Virus record (IMG/VR): IMGVR_UViG_3300031087_000003
From: a virus
DNA length: 48,758 nt
Direction: 5' to 3' (one strand)
Shown: positions 3,944-31,195 of the stretch, piece after piece
Numbering within the stretch: position 1 is the stretch's first letter
How the letters are laid out: every line of letters starts with the position of its first letter
The notes under the pieces: generated by a model
The model's database searches: none
Seen by the model: the letters and a program-made list of their open reading frames with translations, nothing else
Told to the model about the DNA's origin: nothing
Program-made: the position numbers and the translations under genes

Positions 3944-4153
3944 ATGGGTCACACAATTATACGCAGGCGCACCGTACGCGCCGACCAGTTACGTGAGGGT
4001 ATGCTGCTGGACTTTGATGACGGTGAGCCTGATATGGTCAAAGAGCTGAAGCATCTGGCGCACAAGGTGCTCTTTACATCACGCGGTTGTCAGTTCTCTC
4101 TGGACCGCGATGAGATTGTACAGACTGTCATCATGATGAGGATTGTAGGATGA
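3944..4153 (+). CDS. Hypothetical protein (69 aa)
   Basis: ORF in a tightly packed same-strand array. Confidence 0.55.
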   Translation: MGHTIIRRRTVRADQLREGMLLDFDDGEPDMVKELKHLAHKVLFTSRGCQFSLDRDEIVQTVIMMRIVG

Positions 4154-4573: not shown

Positions 4574-4761
4574 CACTACTGCAATGCTATCTGGTGCTCT
4601 GTGTCATCATGTCATTGCGTGACACTAGTGAGGATGCATATGATGAGGACTACCACACGCAGCACGTGATGAAGCGGTTTGTGATTAACCTTGTCATGTG
4701 GCACTACTGGTTCGTGATTGACTGTATTGCGTTGTGGAATGTGCGCCGGGGTGGGGAATGA
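4570..4761 (+). CDS. Hypothetical protein (63 aa, hydrophobic N-terminus)
   Basis: The ATG at 4570 overlaps the upstream TGA. It is an internal Met of track ORF 4537-4761. Confidence 0.45.
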   Translation: MTLLQCYLVLCVIMSLRDTSEDAYDEDYHTQHVMKRFVINLVMWHYWFVIDCIALWNVRRGGE

Positions 4762-5108
4762 TGGATATTACTCAGGAGCCTCTGACATGGTTGGGAGAAC
4801 ACCAGTTTGCCAATCGTTACATCGTAAGTGCAGCCAACAGATACACTACAACGAAAGGTGAATATCTGGTGATTCCGTGTGTGAGACATTACAGTAAAGA
4901 GCACCAACCGATTATAAAAGCACTAAGGGATTCTGGTGTTTTAACAAAAACAGTGGTTGCCGGGGACAATCAGGGATTCGTTGACCAGTATTCAAATTAC
5001 TGGACACGAGAACAAGCACTGGTGATAGCAGAGAAAGCGGGTCAAATAGGAAGGAGAGGTGAAAAGGTTTGGCCGAAAGATTTGCTATTTAGTGAAGACC
5101 TTTATTAA
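4758..5108 (+). CDS. Hypothetical protein (116 aa)
   Basis: ATGATG at 4758 overlaps the upstream stop. GGGGA SD. Confidence 0.6.
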   Translation: MMDITQEPLTWLGEHQFANRYIVSAANRYTTTKGEYLVIPCVRHYSKEHQPIIKALRDSGVLTKTVVAGDNQGFVDQYSNYWTREQALVIAEKAGQIGRRGEKVWPKDLLFSEDLY

Positions 5109-8188: not shown

Positions 8189-9622
8189 ATGCCAAAAGCT
8201 AAACAACCTAACCTCCATTCCGTACCAGCTGTACGACACGCGACAGCCGATGGTCTGGTCAACGTTGTGTCAGGTCTTGGCACGCACAAGGCTAAGCGCT
8301 CACACAACTATTTCAGCTACGCCACGCTACAGGACTGGCAGCAGATGGACGCAGCGTATCAGACAAACTGGCTCGCACGTGCCATCGTGGACATCCCCGC
8401 TGAGGACATGTGTCGTGAGTGGCGCATCATCAAGTCCAAAGACGCAGACGCTATCCGCATTGAGGAAGACCGTCTGATGCTGCCCATGCACGTACAGGAA
8501 GCTGCAACATGGGGCGGACTGTACGGCGGCAGCGGTATTCTCATGCTGACCGGTCAGGACTTAACCAAACCGCTCAATCTCAACCGTGTGCGCAAAGGTA
8601 GTCTGGAGCGTCTGGTTGTATTTGACCGTTATGATATGTCTGCCATGACGCTTAACACGTGGAACGTGCTGGCACCGAATTACCTTGCGCCGGAGTTTTA
8701 CACCATCACCGGTGGCGGACAGCAGATTCACTGGTCACACTTTGCACGCTTTAATGGTACTCGCCTGCCCCGTCGCCAGATGTTACAGACTCAGGGCTGG
8801 GGTGATTCGGAGCTGCGCAAGTGTCTCGATGACATCATGGACATGGTTGCTTCAAAGGACGGTATCGCCGAGCTGATGCAGGAAGCCAACGTGGATATCA
8901 TCAAGCGTGAAGGCCTCAGTGATGAGCTCGCATCAGACCAGGACGAAGCTATCACACAGCGTTACGCCCTGTTCAGCCAGATGAAGTCCATTGTGCAGAT
9001 GGCCCTGCTGGACGGTGATGAGACATATGACCGCAAGACGCTCGACTTGGGCGGTGTTGCACCGGTTATTGAAATCTTCATGACGTGGATTAGCGGCGCT
9101 GCCAATATCCCACTCACCCGCCTGTTCGGTACCTCTGCAAAGGGTATGAATGCCACGGGTGAAGGAGATATGAATAACTACAACAATTCCATCCGTTCCA
9201 AACAGCTGACGCGCCTTGACCCGGGTATGCGTTATCTCGATGAGGTGATGGTACGTAGCGCACTGGGCTACTGGCCGGACGATTACAACTACGTGTGGGC
9301 ACCACTGTCACAACCTACCGAGTTGCAGCTTGCTCAGGCGGCTCAGACGCGTATGCAGACGGACATTGGTTACCTGCAGGAAGGTATCATCCGCCCGTCA
9401 CAGATTCAGCGTAACCTGCAGTCGTCCGAGCAGTATCAGTTTGCTGATGAGGACATTGAGTCACAGGAAGCAGCTGAGACAGACGTTATTGTGCGTCCGG
9501 ATGACGTGGAGGAGCCAGTTGCACAGGTGGAGCAAACTGACTCATTTTGGCTTAAGTATACTGACCTGACCGTTAAGGATGGTCTGTCACATGAGCAGGC
9601 TATGGAGCAACTCGCCCAATAA
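8189..9622 (+). CDS. Portal protein (DUF1073/HI1409-like)
   Basis: 477 aa directly after TerL. NWLARAIVDIPAEDM motif is recalled for this portal family. Confidence 0.8.
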   Translation: MPKAKQPNLHSVPAVRHATADGLVNVVSGLGTHKAKRSHNYFSYATLQDWQQMDAAYQTNWLARAIVDIPAEDMCREWRIIKSKDADAIRIEEDRLMLPMHVQEAATWGGLYGGSGILMLTGQDLTKPLNLNRVRKGSLERLVVFDRYDMSAMTLNTWNVLAPNYLAPEFYTITGGGQQIHWSHFARFNGTRLPRRQMLQTQGWGDSELRKCLDDIMDMVASKDGIAELMQEANVDIIKREGLSDELASDQDEAITQRYALFSQMKSIVQMALLDGDETYDRKTLDLGGVAPVIEIFMTWISGAANIPLTRLFGTSAKGMNATGEGDMNNYNNSIRSKQLTRLDPGMRYLDEVMVRSALGYWPDDYNYVWAPLSQPTELQLAQAAQTRMQTDIGYLQEGIIRPSQIQRNLQSSEQYQFADEDIESQEAAETDVIVRPDDVEEPVAQVEQTDSFWLKYTDLTVKDGLSHEQAMEQLAQ

Positions 9623-16153: not shown

Positions 16154-16614
16154 TCGACATCCTTATCAGTGCTGGAATTTACTTCAGCTGGCGTTGGCTT
16201 GATGTATTCCGCATAAGCCAGTACATCAAGGTCTGACTTGGTGTAGTAATAATCGAAATCAGGATGCGAGCAGAGGTCATGCCAGCCGACCGGCCAGTAT
16301 GGCTCGCCATCTGGCGTATACATCTCGCAATCGTCCGATTCTTCATCAGGTTCTGGGCAATTGAAGAAGGTCAGGTCAGTCACGTGAACACTGCCAGCTT
16401 TCAGACGATGCGTTACCCAATACCGCTTGCTGGCGCCTTCAGGTATAGCCGGTTCTCCGGTGTGCCATATAGCAATTACGTGCTCCGCATCCAGCTTTTG
16501 CTGCAGGGCGGCGTAGTCATCGTATGCCACAAACTCGCCACCAGATTCCTCATGCATTTCCATGCTTGGCTCATAACGTTTTACTTCACTCATCTCACTA
16601 CACTCCTCACTCAT
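16150..16614 (-). CDS. Highly acidic hypothetical protein (154 aa)
   Basis: By my count about 35 Asp/Glu versus about 10 Lys/Arg. First gene after the promoter at 16628-16656. Confidence 0.6.
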   Translation of the reverse strand: MSEECSEMSEVKRYEPSMEMHEESGGEFVAYDDYAALQQKLDAEHVIAIWHTGEPAIPEGASKRYWVTHRLKAGSVHVTDLTFFNCPEPDEESDDCEMYTPDGEPYWPVGWHDLCSHPDFDYYYTKSDLDVLAYAEYIKPTPAEVNSSTDKDVE

Positions 16615-16627
16615 TTAATGTACCACT

Positions 16628-16656
16628 ACCCTACCCCACTCTGACGCACTCGTCAA
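16628..16656 (-). promoter_or_regulatory. Promoter-operator (leftward), member of the 50-bp repeat family
   Basis: Minus strand reads TTGACG-agtg-CGTCAG-agtgggg-TAGGGT. Confidence 0.6.
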
Positions 16657-17485: not shown

Positions 17486-18062
17486 CGCCGGGGATTTTAC
17501 CGGCTGCGATGGCGTCGTAAATTAATTCAGCCTCATCCTTGGTGATATATGTTCCAATAGCATCTTCATTTCCAATCGCGGTGATGAACCTATCCCGCTT
17601 ACGTTCTGCTTCGGTGCGCGCCGCGTAAAAGGAAGAATCTTTAATAGAAATCATAAACTCTTCGTAGTCTTCACCCAGTGGTTCACCCTTCCAAGCAAAA
17701 ACCATATCAAAGCCTACACCGAGACAGGTTGCGGCTGTTCTGTGGGAACCATATTCAAATTTACAACCAACCGGCGGCAAACCTTCACCATTCCACACGG
17801 GCTGCTGCAGCGCTGCTTCATATTGTTCACGTGTGATAAAACCGTCTTCCCAGTCCACTTCGGATGTAATGTGTAGAACCTTCCATTCATCACATAAGGT
17901 ATTACCAGACGCATCAGTCCAACCACCAAAGTGACTAGTATGAGTTGGTAATTTTTCATGAGCACAAATGTTATTATTTTCATCATAACTAACAGCAGCC
18001 CATCCATTGTTCCATCCACCACGCTTTGGTAATTCCTGCACCAGTAAATCAATCAGTTTCAT
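17472..18062 (-). CDS. Hypothetical protein (196 aa); reverse-strand cassette
   Basis: Own promoter at 18096-18124. 3' end overlaps the adaptor gene by 14 nt. Confidence 0.65.
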
Positions 18063-18095
18063 GTGTATACCCTCTCACTCAGTTAATGTCCCATT

Positions 18096-18124
18096 ACCCT
18101 ACCCCACTTTGACGCATCCGTCAA
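18096..18124 (-). promoter_or_regulatory. Promoter-operator with perfect palindrome arms, member of the 50-bp repeat family
   Basis: TTGACG-catc-CGTCAA. Minus strand continues agtgggg-TAGGGT. Confidence 0.6.
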
Positions 18125-25332: not shown

Positions 25333-25338
25333 TTAATG

Positions 25339-25366
25339 AGGCCCCGTGAGGGGCCTTAGTTTTAAT
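25339..25366 (+). terminator. Intrinsic terminator
   Basis: AGGCCCC-gtga-GGGGCCT followed by tagtttta. Confidence 0.65.
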
Positions 25367-25580
25367 CAGTAAGTTTTAAAGATGGTAAAGGTCCCGCATA
25401 ACCGTAAATTTTTTCACGATATCGACAATCTGAACCAGGGTAACTCCAGTCACCAAACATCCATGTCAGTATGATTGTTTTTGCCGCCGGTACAGGAATG
25501 TCTGGATTGACCCAACAGATATATTTACCTTCTTGTTTGGGATTTCCAAAAACATCTATATCTATAAATTCTACGCTCAT
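25362..25580 (-). CDS. Hypothetical protein (72 aa); reverse-strand cassette
   Basis: GAGGAA SD. Own promoter at 25608-25636. Confidence 0.6.
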   Translation of the reverse strand: MSVEFIDIDVFGNPKQEGKYICWVNPDIPVPAAKTIILTWMFGDWSYPGSDCRYREKIYGYAGPLPSLKLTD

Positions 25581-25607
25581 ATCTGGTTCCTCAGTTAATG
25601 TCCTACT

Positions 25608-25636
25608 ACCCTACCCCACTTTGACGCACTCGTCAA
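25608..25636 (-). promoter_or_regulatory. Promoter-operator with perfect palindrome arms, member of the 50-bp repeat family
   Basis: TTGACG-cact-CGTCAA. Minus strand continues agtgggg-TAGGGT. Confidence 0.6.
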
Positions 25637-25696
25637 CTACTATCATTCTGCACCCGGTTCCTGTAAACTTTACCCATTGAAACAAGGGGACCATCA

Positions 25697-28413: not shown

Positions 28414-28709
28414 TGCAGGAAATTCCACTGTCAAATGGTTCAGCCAATGCTCATCAGCGATTCAGTCTGCAGCTTGGCAATAATTATCTGGACTTTGAGG
28501 TTGATTACCTTTCATACCTTGACGTCCCCGCGTGGACACTGAGTATTCTGCGTGACGCCACACCACTTGTTCTTGGTGCAATGCTCGTACCCGGCGCAGA
28601 TGTGGTGTCAGGTTATCGTGCGGACATCGGGCGTTTTGTATTTGTCGGTGACGAAGTAACACTGGATAACCTCGGTGTCAACAATCACCTTGTGTGGGTG
28701 AGCGAATGA
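28413..28709 (+). CDS. Tail / baseplate protein (98 aa, unassigned)
   Basis: TGATG coupling. Lies within the tail operon. Confidence 0.5.
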   Translation: MQEIPLSNGSANAHQRFSLQLGNNYLDFEVDYLSYLDVPAWTLSILRDATPLVLGAMLVPGADVVSGYRADIGRFVFVGDEVTLDNLGVNNHLVWVSE

Positions 28710-30085
28710 CTGAGCGCCGTCTTTACAGTGTGATTATCAACGGTGACACATACATCAGCGAGAGCGACGCATATCAGTTTCGTGTCGTTTTCGATATCGA
28801 TATTAACCCCGGTGAAACACTGGCGTTTGGCGACTTCCGCATTTATAACCTTGCAAAAGCTTCGACAGTGGATGCCGGTTCTTCGATTGAATTCCGCGCC
28901 GGTTACACCAATCAGGTTGACAGTATATTCAAAGGTTATATTACCAACACGTTCAGAGAACGCGATGGCGCTTCCACAGTGCAGCGCTTTCTGTGTAAGT
29001 CAGGCGATCCAGTTCATGACCGGGGTTCGCTTAACTCGTCGTACAGTCAGGGTGTACAATTGCTGGATGTACTTAAAGACATTGCGCAGCAATGGCCTCG
29101 TCAGCTTGACATTGATGAAACGCAGTTTAGCGGTATCACACTGACCAGTGGTTATATGGTTGACGGTGATATTCCACAAGAGTTAAATCAGCTGGCACAG
29201 GCTTATGACTTTGACTGGCTGCAGGACCGGGGGAGACTTGTCATCACTAAGCGTACTGCAGCGCGTACAACACCTTCCACGGAGATTTCACAGTTCACCG
29301 GTATGGTTGGTGTACCAGAAGTAACACGTGGACCCAACGGGCTCGGCGTGTATGTGATTAACCGTCTGAATCCTTACTTCCGTATCAACGGTCGCATTAA
29401 CATTAAATCAGAGTTCCAGAGTTTTAACGCCGGTAACCTGTTTGTCGTTGGACTGGCCGGTGACGCGCGAGCAACCGGTGAGTACAACATATTTGCTCTG
29501 AGGCATCGCGGCGACTCACACGGAAACCTGTGGGTGACTGAGATTGATGGGCTACGTGCTAACTCAGCGCAGCCGATGATTAGTACCGGTGCGCTGGTCT
29601 GGGGTCAGCGTGTTTCACAGGAGTTCCGTGTGAGAGTACGTGAGATTGCTGGCAACCTTAACATCGATGCGTCATGGTTAATGGCTGTCATGGGATTTGA
29701 GACGGGTTATCTGTTTAACTCCTCAGTCAAAAATCCCGGCAGCAGTGCCACAGGGCTCATTCAGTTTGTGAGTTCCACAGCAAAATCACTTGGTACCAGT
29801 ACGACAGCACTTGCGCGTATGACACCAGTACAACAGCTGGACTACGTTGAAAAGTATTTCAACCAGTACAAAGGACGTATCAATAACATTGGTGACTGTT
29901 ATATGGCGGTGTTCTGGCCTGCCGGTATCGGTAAACCTGACGCGTACGTAATCGCTACGTCACCCTCCAGTGTTTACAACGCTAACGCAGGACTTGATGT
30001 TAACCGTGACGGCACTATCACACGTGGCGAAGCTGTATCGCGCGTGAACGATTCTTATCGTCGTGGTCAGCAATACGCTAAATAA
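28706..30085 (+). CDS. Baseplate hub protein with C-terminal lytic-transglycosylase-like domain
   Basis: The ATG at 28706 overlaps the upstream TGA. C-terminus MGFETGY...SATGLIQF is SLT-like. Confidence 0.7.
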   Translation: MTERRLYSVIINGDTYISESDAYQFRVVFDIDINPGETLAFGDFRIYNLAKASTVDAGSSIEFRAGYTNQVDSIFKGYITNTFRERDGASTVQRFLCKSGDPVHDRGSLNSSYSQGVQLLDVLKDIAQQWPRQLDIDETQFSGITLTSGYMVDGDIPQELNQLAQAYDFDWLQDRGRLVITKRTAARTTPSTEISQFTGMVGVPEVTRGPNGLGVYVINRLNPYFRINGRINIKSEFQSFNAGNLFVVGLAGDARATGEYNIFALRHRGDSHGNLWVTEIDGLRANSAQPMISTGALVWGQRVSQEFRVRVREIAGNLNIDASWLMAVMGFETGYLFNSSVKNPGSSATGLIQFVSSTAKSLGTSTTALARMTPVQQLDYVEKYFNQYKGRINNIGDCYMAVFWPAGIGKPDAYVIATSPSSVYNANAGLDVNRDGTITRGEAVSRVNDSYRRGQQYAK

Positions 30086-30109
30086 AAAAAAATGCCCCAT
30101 TTAAGGGGC
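30084..30109 (-). terminator. Intrinsic terminator oriented for the minus strand
   Basis: Minus strand reads GCCCC-ttaaat-GGGGC-A-TTTTTTTTT. The plus strand has no U-tract after the hairpin. Confidence 0.7.
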
Positions 30110-30389
30110 TAAAAGAGCAGCGGTCTTCAGGTATTACGCGTAATACACTTGATATTACTCCCGAGATTCTCTTAGAAAACCAAGGCTAGACATGAGTCTC
30201 ATCAAATGTACTACGCGTAATACTCCGGTCTCTTCCCGGATGCCAACGCTTGCCGCCAGAGTGCGTAACCTCTCATGAGGGACAACCCAAAACCCGGCTA
30301 CACATTACGTCATTCGTCACCGCGCTACAACGTGGCAAGGAGCTCCACAGCTAACGGTGTGACCCACATGTGATACATGGAAGACCATA
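30086..30389 (-). ncRNA. Candidate ~300-nt non-coding RNA, antisense to the late-operon spacer
   Basis: No ORF over ~27 codons on either strand. Bounded by the leftward promoter at 30396-30425 and the minus-strand terminator. Internal palindromes are present. Confidence 0.4.
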
Positions 30390-30395
30390 GGATAA

Positions 30396-30425
30396 ATCCT
30401 ATCTCACTTTTGACGTGACTGTCAA
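30396..30425 (-). promoter_or_regulatory. Degenerate promoter-operator (leftward)
   Basis: Minus strand reads TTGACA-gtca-CGTCAA-N8-TAGGAT (18-bp spacer). Confidence 0.45.
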
Positions 30426-30472
30426 CTGTCAATCCTGTATTATTTCAATATCGTTCCGCTGTTGGGGTTTCC

Positions 30473-31195
30473 ATGACCAGTAATACTAAACGCGCTTCAG
30501 GTTCACAGGTGCAACGTGTTGCATTTGCTGAAAACATGAAATCCGTTTACACCTCTATTCCCGGTCATGTGTTGTCATTTGACCCTAAAACACAACGTGC
30601 ACAGATTCAGATTGGAATTCAGCGTGTGGACATCAACGGGATTGCGTGGGTACCCGCACCCATCGTAGACGTACCAGTCCAGTTCCCCGGCGATGGTTTC
30701 ACCGTTGAATACCAGATTGATACGGGCTGCGAAGGTGTTGTACTGTTCAGTCAGCGCTGTATTGATGGTTGGAAACAAACAGGTGGTACAGCTGACAATC
30801 CTGCAGCACGCTTTCACAATCAGCAGGATGCCATGTTTGTACCGGGCATTCGCTCACTACCTAATGTCATAAAAAATTTCAGCAACAATGGTATCAAGCT
30901 GCGTAACGAAGATGGAACACAATATGCGTGGCTTAAAAATGATGGTTCTCTTGCTGTGGGTAATGCGCAGGCCAGTGTGAATATCGCCGCAAACGGTCTT
31001 GTTGATATCCTGAATGCATCTGGTTCTATCCAGTTACTTGCAAACGGTAACGCAGTAATAAATGGTGTCGTGTTCACACCTCAGGGCCGTATTACTCCAC
31101 CTGCGGGCGGCGGTTTCACCGGTTCTAACGGTATCCCATACGAGGACCATCGTCACGATGAAACCGGTACAATAACAGGAACACCACGCACATGA
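30473..31195 (+). CDS. Baseplate central spike protein (Mu gp45-like)
   Basis: N-terminal IPGHVLSFDP..Q.A.IQ...V.VP beta-barrel pattern. Lies before the gp46/47/48-like genes. Confidence 0.65.
   Translation: MTSNTKRASGSQVQRVAFAENMKSVYTSIPGHVLSFDPKTQRAQIQIGIQRVDINGIAWVPAPIVDVPVQFPGDGFTVEYQIDTGCEGVVLFSQRCIDGWKQTGGTADNPAARFHNQQDAMFVPGIRSLPNVIKNFSNNGIKLRNEDGTQYAWLKNDGSLAVGNAQASVNIAANGLVDILNASGSIQLLANGNAVINGVVFTPQGRITPPAGGGFTGSNGIPYEDHRHDETGTITGTPRT

Follow-up and report, generated by a model that had tools for sequence, protein, structure and literature searches.

A structured non-coding RNA gene between the hub and spike genes of a phage, and its family in phages and prophages of Enterobacteriaceae and their relatives

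Several kinds of functional RNA are known from phages. The put RNAs are defined by binding to the zinc-binding domain of the RNA polymerase beta' subunit and by the suppression of termination in cis. GOLLD and ROOL are large "ornate" RNAs of phages and prophages; they form Rfam families, have intricate structures with variable peripheral stems, and recur by tRNA genes. The OOP RNA of lambda and the sar RNA of P22 are small and locus-bound, and act by complementarity to the mRNA that they overlap. A put RNA is about 70 nt long and contains two stem-loops (PMC9378689). Here, these systems are compared with a 387-bp gap in the virus record IMGVR_UViG_3300031087_000003. The window is the whole 48,758-nt stretch of this record, and all unlabelled coordinates refer to it. 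The gap lies between the baseplate hub gene (28694-30085, stop codon TAA at 30083-30085) and the spike gene (ATG at 30473). A first-pass annotation of the window had proposed a protein-free transcription unit of about 300 nt on the minus strand of this gap. Sequence conservation, covariation, and the evidence on the strand all support this proposal. The gap encodes a structured non-coding RNA of about 300 nt, one of a large family found in phages and prophages of Enterobacteriaceae and their relatives. The family is new to Rfam 15 and to the GenBank/RefSeq annotation.

Alignment of the syntenic gap in related phages, which the first-pass annotation had suggested together with covariation analysis, included 11 distinct homologues of the window type, and a core of about 180 nt aligns well. 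The helices (P1-P5, the crossing S1/S2, and P6; Table 1) were derived from RNAalifold and an all-pairs screen. In this alignment, 99.2% of 385 cells pair, a count that is inflated by the relatedness of the sequences, and 18 of the 35 pairs are compensatory; none of 500 shuffles matched this result. When the partners were slid by 1-3 columns as a control, pairing was 22-48%, with 0-3 compensatory pairs. The gap folds more stably than shuffled sequence, with z = -4.7 for the plus strand and z = -5.5 for the minus strand. The mean identity of the RNA core is 0.78, compared with 0.75 for the hub coding DNA and 0.78 for the spike coding DNA. The idea that the core is more conserved than its flanking genes was therefore rejected, as the conservation is equal.

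The conserved structure consists of a 5' hairpin domain, a pseudoknot, a short hairpin, and a long variable stem. In the 5' domain, compensatory changes were found in 11 of 22 pairs, and 98-100% of the cells are paired; the (Y)UCCUUG at the start of its apical loop is common to the wider family. In the pseudoknot, one S1 pair and two S2 pairs covary within the window group, where 100% of the cells are paired. In the wider family, all four S1 pairs covary and S2 is invariant. Four of the five P6 pairs covary (such as CUUCG/CGAAG in L007 and L010) and the loop is invariant; both the hairpin and the loop are also found in the lambdoid and epsilon15-like members. The P7 stem is present in every relative with 8 to 31 pairs, and it is formed by unrelated sequence between the conserved flanks GUAU...AUAC. 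In one Jedunavirus-like contig (L043), a module of about 65 nt, CAGGUGAGGGUAUUUGAUAUGAUUACUCUCACCUGUUGUAACCAUCGAGUGA, is duplicated in tandem at RNA positions ~160-290; this internal repeat shows that duplication, and not replacement alone, contributes to the evolution of the variable stems.

The internal elements noticed in the first-pass annotation could be placed on this structure. All four (30131-30146, 30208-30223, 30224-30240, and CTCATGAG at 30272-30279) are present in the window. The two 16-nt palindromes, which had been considered as protein operators, form the two arms at the P7 base, and do so in this phage only; the sequence of the relatives there is unrelated and non-palindromic and keeps the pairing, so that the operator reading does not stand. 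The TCCGG-N7-CCGGA element was recognized as the P6 hairpin. CTCATGAG is a window-specific accident over one strand of the pseudoknot. A likeness of the core to a miniature 16S rRNA 5' domain, seen by eye, was also rejected: Smith-Waterman comparison with shuffled sequences gave z = -0.5 to 2 for the window and the core.

The structure extends far beyond the window group. A BLAST search with one Jedunavirus RNA reached unrelated phages, namely a Klebsiella prophage and a Stenotrophomonas phage. These share with the window RNA the P1 helix (GCACAUG...AAUGUG), the GCUCCUUGG loop, the GUGGCG pseudoknot region, and P6 with its GGAAGAGAC loop. The 19-mer AGCGGGTAGCCGGAATGTG was found in more than 120 IMG/VR contigs, which represent 116 distinct cores, and in eight species-representative bacterial contigs, including Kosakonia, Klebsiella, and Enterobacter. 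Related sequence is present in mEp390, in SPN1S-like phages, and in Enterobacter phage Tyrion. The family was also identified in 26 of 5426 complete E. coli genomes, including enteropathogenic E. coli (EPEC) E2348/69 and enterotoxigenic E. coli H10407, with nothing annotated over the RNA, as well as in prophages of Klebsiella pneumoniae and in 76 Jedunavirus-type GenBank records. The core is about 150-180 nt long, and the total RNA ranges from 140 to 800 nt. Among 18 diverse members, 98.7% of the cells are paired and 11 pairs are compensatory, which none of 500 shuffles matched. The invariant loops are kept in phages recorded from hosts that range from Stenotrophomonas to Escherichia.

Two covariance models were used to relate the window to this family. 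The R2 model was built from 18 temperate-phage sequences only; the window phage and its close relatives were excluded. The single R2 match in the window is the conserved minus-strand core; its E-value is 8e-8 when the window is searched alone and 4e-7 in the pooled search. It also matches the syntenic site of every window-type locus (E from 2e-8 to 2e-3) and the Jedunavirus loci (E about 1e-15). The R1 model scores 178.7 bits on the window. Rfam 15 contains GOLLD, ROOL, Y RNA-like, 6S, tmRNA, C4, and the known phage sRNAs. In the search of the window against it (E <= 10), the sole match that overlaps the element was a chance microRNA over the P7 stem. For the strong members (E <= 0.1-1), the core was unmatched and the matches were confined to the cargo modules described below (tRNA, a small subunit rRNA fragment, and RprA). 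A limited literature search on Jedunavirus transcriptomes, AAM22, HK639 and put, and structured RNAs of prophages found no description of the family.

The nearest GenBank relative of the window is Pantoea phage vB_PagM_AAM22 (78% nucleotide identity), and the Klebsiella and Escherichia Jedunavirus phages are more distant. A gap of 320-580 bp precedes the spike gene in AAM22 and in all of the Jedunavirus relatives. Fifty IMG/VR loci were retrieved by the spike protein, and the survey of promoters and terminators covered 53 related loci. A promoter-to-terminator frame was found in 36 of these 53 loci; it encloses 142-796 bp and represents 33 distinct sequences. An A-run with a G+C hairpin immediately behind the upstream gene forms one side of the frame, and TTGACG..GTCAA at 50-65 bp before the spike gene forms the other. 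Four close homologues came from metagenomes (L086, L143, L152, and L166). A metagenome scan with the 16-nt operator was tried as a homologue finder and rejected, since almost all of its matches were due to chance; the four homologues just named are the real ones that it recovered.

All lines of evidence agree that the minus strand is the RNA strand. The promoter and the terminator are both oriented to it. The helices contain 12 G-U cells when read on the minus strand, compared with 3 on the plus strand, and the minus strand folds better by 10-23 kcal/mol in 11 of 11 homologues. In the P7 stem of the window, G-U pairs on the minus strand become A-C mismatches on the plus strand (-56.0 versus -42.7 kcal/mol). 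Four columns of the wider-family alignment are mostly G-U when read on the strand of the window RNA. The tRNA and the 16S-like hairpin embedded in relatives also lie on the RNA strand.

No protein gene was recognized in the gap. The longest open reading frame (ORF) within the 387 bp has 35 amino acids. A conserved small protein was considered and rejected, because the longest ORFs change strand and position between relatives. The plus-strand ORF at 30275-30373 (32 amino acids) has no Shine-Dalgarno sequence and is interrupted in L007, L008, and L010. An intact protein gene was not found at the gap position in any relative examined, and both sequence and structure are conserved among the relatives. 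These results are the opposite of what the first-pass annotation had expected from a decayed gene cassette. Such a cassette, or a neutral spacer with a leftover promoter and terminator, might be suspected in a genome in which several reverse-strand protein cassettes use the same promoter type. This explanation is hardly credible. It is already contradicted by the covariation and by the significant match to a model from unrelated phages, and the core is as conserved as the flanking essential genes.

The transcription signals of the gap were confirmed by sequence and by scan at the positions proposed in the first-pass annotation, and the same terminator scan found no plus-strand terminator in the gap. 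The promoter scan gave 3 promoter-like matches compared with 2.0 expected, so a single match alone is not significant. Every close relative has the identical operator palindrome, with TAnGAT kept as the -10 hexamer. The minus-strand transcription start is predicted near 30389. The proposal that this promoter is a copy of a phage promoter-operator was borne out by the motif count: TTGAC-N6-GTCAA occurs 17 times in the window versus 2.3 expected, and none of 100 shuffles reached 17. About 13 of the copies have the form TTGACG-N4-CGTCAR, followed after 7-8 nt by a TAnnnT hexamer, and each of them faces a gene start. This arrangement implies a single phage or host regulator for about 13 promoters, including those of several reverse-strand cassettes within the structural region. 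At the other end of the unit, the U-tract of the terminator overlaps the stop codon of the hub gene. The RNA of every Jedunavirus-like and window-type locus has a strong terminator immediately behind it.

A census of 120 family loci showed three unrelated genomic contexts. The RNA of 47 loci comes immediately after a cI-like repressor gene and has the direction of that gene; here the RNA follows a promoter, is co-directional with a ParB-like early gene, and is antisense to nothing. A further 38 loci are of the epsilon15-like type, with the RNA placed antisense between the genes for the large terminase and the portal. Eight loci have the hub/spike arrangement. The other 27 loci are unclassified, and 14 of them have a ParB-like gene downstream and no cI-like gene detected by the queries used. 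No constant protein neighbour was found across the three contexts; the neighbours differ and are mostly of unknown function.

This census bears on the antisense action that the first-pass annotation had raised. A cis-antisense regulator would act on the spacer of the late hub-spike mRNA, either by RNase III processing or by interference with late transcription. The RNA is fully complementary to a late read-through transcript, the gap has no plus-strand terminator, and 46 of the 120 loci are antisense inside late operons of two unrelated lineages (hub/spike and terminase/portal). RNase III cuts long near-perfect duplexes, and P7 would be a duplex of this kind by analogy. The window RNA also resembles OOP and sar as a short transcript opposite phage mRNAs with its own promoter and terminator. 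Unlike these RNAs, however, the family core is also found at loci without any antisense partner, and it is the intramolecular structure that is constrained. Simple antisense pairing needs neither compensatory intramolecular helices nor invariant loops. Antisense action is thus not supported as the main function, because many members (at least 47 of 120 loci, next to cI) have no antisense partner. Moreover, coupling across the spacer may not matter, because the spike gene has its own conserved promoter-like site. The inverted orientation in late operons is already accounted for by terminator polarity, since a cassette that ends in a terminator would fit into an operon only if inverted. An antisense regulator is very unlikely as the defining function, and antisense action is possible as a side effect of the RNA.

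The lambdoid context suggests a different comparison. The lambdoid members occupy the same place as HK022 putL and the HK639 putL-like RNA, directly downstream of a leftward early promoter by the repressor gene, and the latter is annotated as a "putL-like antiterminator RNA". Like the family RNA, these are phage-encoded structured RNAs without a dedicated phage protein partner. The main rival explanation is therefore a cis-acting processive antiterminator analogous to put. The nascent core would bind RNA polymerase and make it resistant to terminators, which would open the early-left operon in the lambdoid relatives and allow leftward antisense read-through over the hub and tail genes in the window. 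The 47 loci just after a cI-like gene and the 14 further loci with a ParB-like early gene downstream are in line with this reading. The order in L185 and mEp390 is cI gene, cI terminator, promoter, and RNA, and the early ORFs run in the direction of the RNA; the L185 promoter is flanked by TATCAC-type half-sites (seen by eye). In epsilon15-like members, a tRNA and terminator-like hairpins lie between the RNA and a co-directional small ORF. The near-invariant nucleotides across distant hosts would suit binding to RNA polymerase.

Several differences argue against an antiterminator of the put type. Neither the HK022 nor the HK639 locus gave a match to R2, and the HK022 locus also lacks the family motifs. 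The HK639 putL-like sequence has only a GGAAGAG string in common with the family, as judged by eye. Kinship to these RNAs was thus rejected, as neither sequence nor model similarity was found. The family core is two to three times larger than put and contains a pseudoknot. No second, putR-like copy was found in the rightward operon of the lambdoid members, and each locus has one RNA copy except for a tandem pair in L188. In this lambdoid prophage, the two cores lie at 3998-4147 and 4805-4952 on the minus strand, about 660 nt apart. The put RNAs lie between an early promoter and the terminators that precede the genes served; the lambdoid relatives are placed in this way, and the window is not. 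Unlike put, most of the non-lambdoid members, including the window, stop at a strong terminator without a gene beyond it on the RNA strand. Hairpins seen by eye between the RNA and the early ORFs of L185 were considered as terminators and rejected, as the strict scan found none on the plus strand there. Antitermination in cis is an unlikely explanation.

The best explanation overall, in which we have moderate confidence, is a discrete, early, trans-acting structured RNA gene. Transcription would run leftward from the operator-controlled sigma-70 promoter to the intrinsic terminator. The RNA would be made early, by a promoter of the type that the other early or reverse-strand cassettes of the phage use, and would be released as a discrete stable molecule that acts in trans. 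Its invariant single-stranded elements may act on a component conserved across Gammaproteobacteria, and the candidate targets are the translation apparatus, the Shine-Dalgarno regions of mRNAs, or RNA polymerase. The UCCUUG loop resembles the 16S anti-Shine-Dalgarno sequence CCUCCUUA, which is a lead rather than a result. The antisense placement in the baseplate operon would be a consequence of the operon tolerating a terminator-bearing cassette, and not the function of the RNA. A trans-acting RNA is favoured because a strong terminator follows at once in the window-type and Jedunavirus loci, because nothing codable lies beyond the terminator on the minus strand of the window, and because the three unrelated genomic settings have no common protein partner. 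The mechanistic part of this explanation (early, discrete, stable, and acting in trans) is held more tentatively, at somewhat under even belief.

Other observations weigh against a trans-acting RNA or limit its support. In the lambdoid members, the RNA is transcribed first from a pL-like promoter, ahead of the early-left genes, and a cis-acting leader suits this position at least as well as a trans-acting RNA. A search for trans targets in the phage genome showed no enrichment of the complements of the two conserved loops. That the RNA is transcribed and stable, and where it begins and ends, are predictions from the sequence. The helices were partly hand-curated, or chosen on the same alignments that were used for the pair counts, although the slid and shuffled controls are strong; the E-values of both covariance models are rough. 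The family may also have been described before under a name outside Rfam.

Some family members carry additional RNA modules in or after the core (Table 1). The tRNAs within or just after family members look functional and are on the same strand as the RNA, and the EPEC E2348/69 prophage has a pseudo-tRNA after the core. The mimic of 16S rRNA helix 11, a hairpin of about 47 nt, has compensatory changes relative to E. coli 16S, and Smith-Waterman comparison of the L002/L003 insert with shuffled sequences gave z = 11.7. This hairpin could serve to decoy a ribosomal protein or a nuclease. The likeness of the 3' module to RprA, a host small RNA (sRNA), extends to the UUGCUGUGUGUAGUCUU region and to the terminator, and the module may be how a phage imitates this sRNA; similar sequence was found in L185 at 9200-9260. 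In AAM22 (L001, ~4590-4680, minus strand), the P7 tip appears by eye as a degenerate class-II tRNA-like structure, with GGAAAUUGGUAGAC as a Leu-like D arm and CAAGGUUCGAUUCCUUG as the T arm; this tip was not called by ARAGORN. ARAGORN found no tRNA or tmRNA in the window or in L001-L003. The window RNA is without any recognizable cargo module.

These modules raise two further explanations. If the core were an expression or processing platform that stabilizes or matures cargo tRNAs and small RNAs, the window copy would be an empty platform. The variety of the modules (tRNA, pseudo-tRNA, helix-11 mimic, RprA-like, and degenerate tRNA-like) is consistent with a platform. However, most members are cargo-free, including the window and all close relatives except AAM22, and their cores are still under purifying selection; a tRNA was found in only 4 of 33 further loci scanned. 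A platform role is thus quite unlikely. A broader and still doubtful proposal is a modular class of phage RNA, in which the pseudoknotted core would dock on the ribosome or on the Shine-Dalgarno regions of mRNAs (by the UCCUUG loop), or on RNA polymerase, and P7 and the 3' end would be slots for interchangeable cargo such as rare-codon tRNAs, the 16S helix-11 decoy, and the RprA mimic. If so, this RNA would be the counterpart of the protein "morons" and might serve host takeover or counter-defence, with the window copy as the minimal, cargo-free form. The tRNA, rRNA-like, and sRNA-like modules inside family members suggest that functional RNA parts, much like protein genes, are shuffled by phages.

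The family was also compared with other known RNAs. It resembles GOLLD and ROOL in its phage and prophage association, its conserved structure with variable stems, and its proximity to tRNAs. In contrast to these RNAs, it has no Rfam model match, is much smaller, and occurs in different hosts (Enterobacteriaceae and their relatives). The window RNA ends in a G+C hairpin and a long U tail after a U-rich stretch, as do Hfq-dependent sRNAs such as RprA. One branch of the family ends in the RprA-like module, whereas the window copy has no RprA-like part, and the family core is far larger and more structured than typical Hfq-dependent sRNAs.

If confirmed, the present results would add a well-supported structured RNA family to phage biology. 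Its members include Klebsiella Jedunavirus phages, which are under development as therapeutic phages. The putL position in lambdoid phages makes the RNA a testable candidate for a new RNA-only antitermination or for a trans-acting, host-directed RNA. In current annotation, the RNA locus is blank or covered by spurious small ORFs. GenBank/RefSeq "hypothetical protein" genes overlie the RNA gene in L001 (4394-4501, AAM22 gp45), L003 (3465-3880, ZCEC13 gp45-47), and L306 (2573-2815, mEp390 gp36). Relatives do not conserve these small ORFs, which are probably artefacts of annotation. ORF-free gaps in structural operons thus merit covariance analysis rather than forced ORF calls.

Table 1. Positions of the RNA elements, transcription signals, and cargo modules.
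Feature	Position	Strand	Remarks
Conserved RNA core, matched by R2	30375-30222	minus	35.3 bits, full model
5' hairpin domain P1-P5	30372-30301	minus	
P1	30372-30368 with 30305-30301	minus	
P2	30363-30360 with 30312-30309	minus	
P3	30359-30354 with 30323-30318	minus	
P4	30351-30349 with 30326-30324	minus	
P5	30348-30345 with 30335-30332	minus	
Apical loop AGCUCCUUG	30344-30336	minus	carries CUCCUUG
H-type pseudoknot	30273-30246	minus	encloses CUGGCG (GUGGCG in relatives)
S1, AGAG with CUCU	30273-30270 with 30261-30258	minus	
S2, ACGC with GCGU	30266-30263 with 30249-30246	minus	
P6 hairpin, UCCGG-GAAGAGA-CCGGA	30240-30224	minus	most conserved hairpin of the family
P7 long hypervariable stem-loop	30223-30131	minus	
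Sigma-70-type promoter, TTGACA-N18-TAGGAT	30425->30396	minus	consensus scan, 10/12 positions
Palindromic operator TTGACAGTCACGTCAA	30410-30425		contains the -35 hexamer of the minus-strand promoter
Intrinsic terminator, GCCCC-UUAAAU-GGGGC-A-U9	30109->30084	minus	terminator scan
Divergent promoter-like site, GTGACT-17-TATTAT	30415-30445	plus	scan, 9/12 positions; shares the operator
Promoter-operator motif sites	1001, 3330, 45620, 46951	plus	
Promoter-operator motif sites	10012, 12584, 16641, 18109, 22001, 25621, 30410, 40996, 43316	minus	
tRNA, anticodon CAU, inside the L011 RNA	L011 2643-2716	minus	54.5 bits
tRNA-Arg(UCU) directly after the core	L182 2726-2799; L187 7107-7183; L216 9801-9877; L221 9258-9333; L223 3117-3193	RNA strand	
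16S rRNA helix-11 mimic, ~47-nt hairpin	L002 3981-4027; L003; L203 4600-4646	minus (L002)	16S positions 237-283
RprA-like 3' module	L183 2690-2809		Stenotrophomonas phage BUCT709; 50.2 bits, below the Rfam gathering score of 70

The genes that flank the RNA belong to the tail and baseplate region. The hub product contains a baseplate-hub gp41-like region and an SLT domain. The spike product has a Pfam match to a phage-protein N-terminal domain, and its relatives are annotated as baseplate spike. The first-pass annotation had described the gap as an unusually long junction in this operon. This holds for the adjacent tail and baseplate genes, which overlap or are separated by <=5 bp, but not for the whole tail region, which has a second long gap at 25333-25696. 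Because that gap holds a minus-strand ORF of 72 amino acids (25362-25580) behind the same promoter type, the cassette at 30 kb is the ORF-free one among the cassettes examined.

The promoter-like site on the plus strand diverges from the RNA gene and probably serves the spike and baseplate genes as a regulated promoter of their own. The block CCTGTATTATTT (30434-30445) within it is invariant in nine relatives and unique in the window, and the GenBank record of Klebsiella phage KpV79 has a promoter annotated at the matching place on the spike strand. Alternatively, this block could be an A/T-rich upstream element of the minus-strand promoter. In three other minus-strand cassettes (16590-16656, 18060-18124, and 25580-25636), a leader of about 40 nt, agtggggtagggtagtggtacattaaatgag..., is near-identical downstream of the promoter. 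This common leader may be a regulatory element in the 5' untranslated region.

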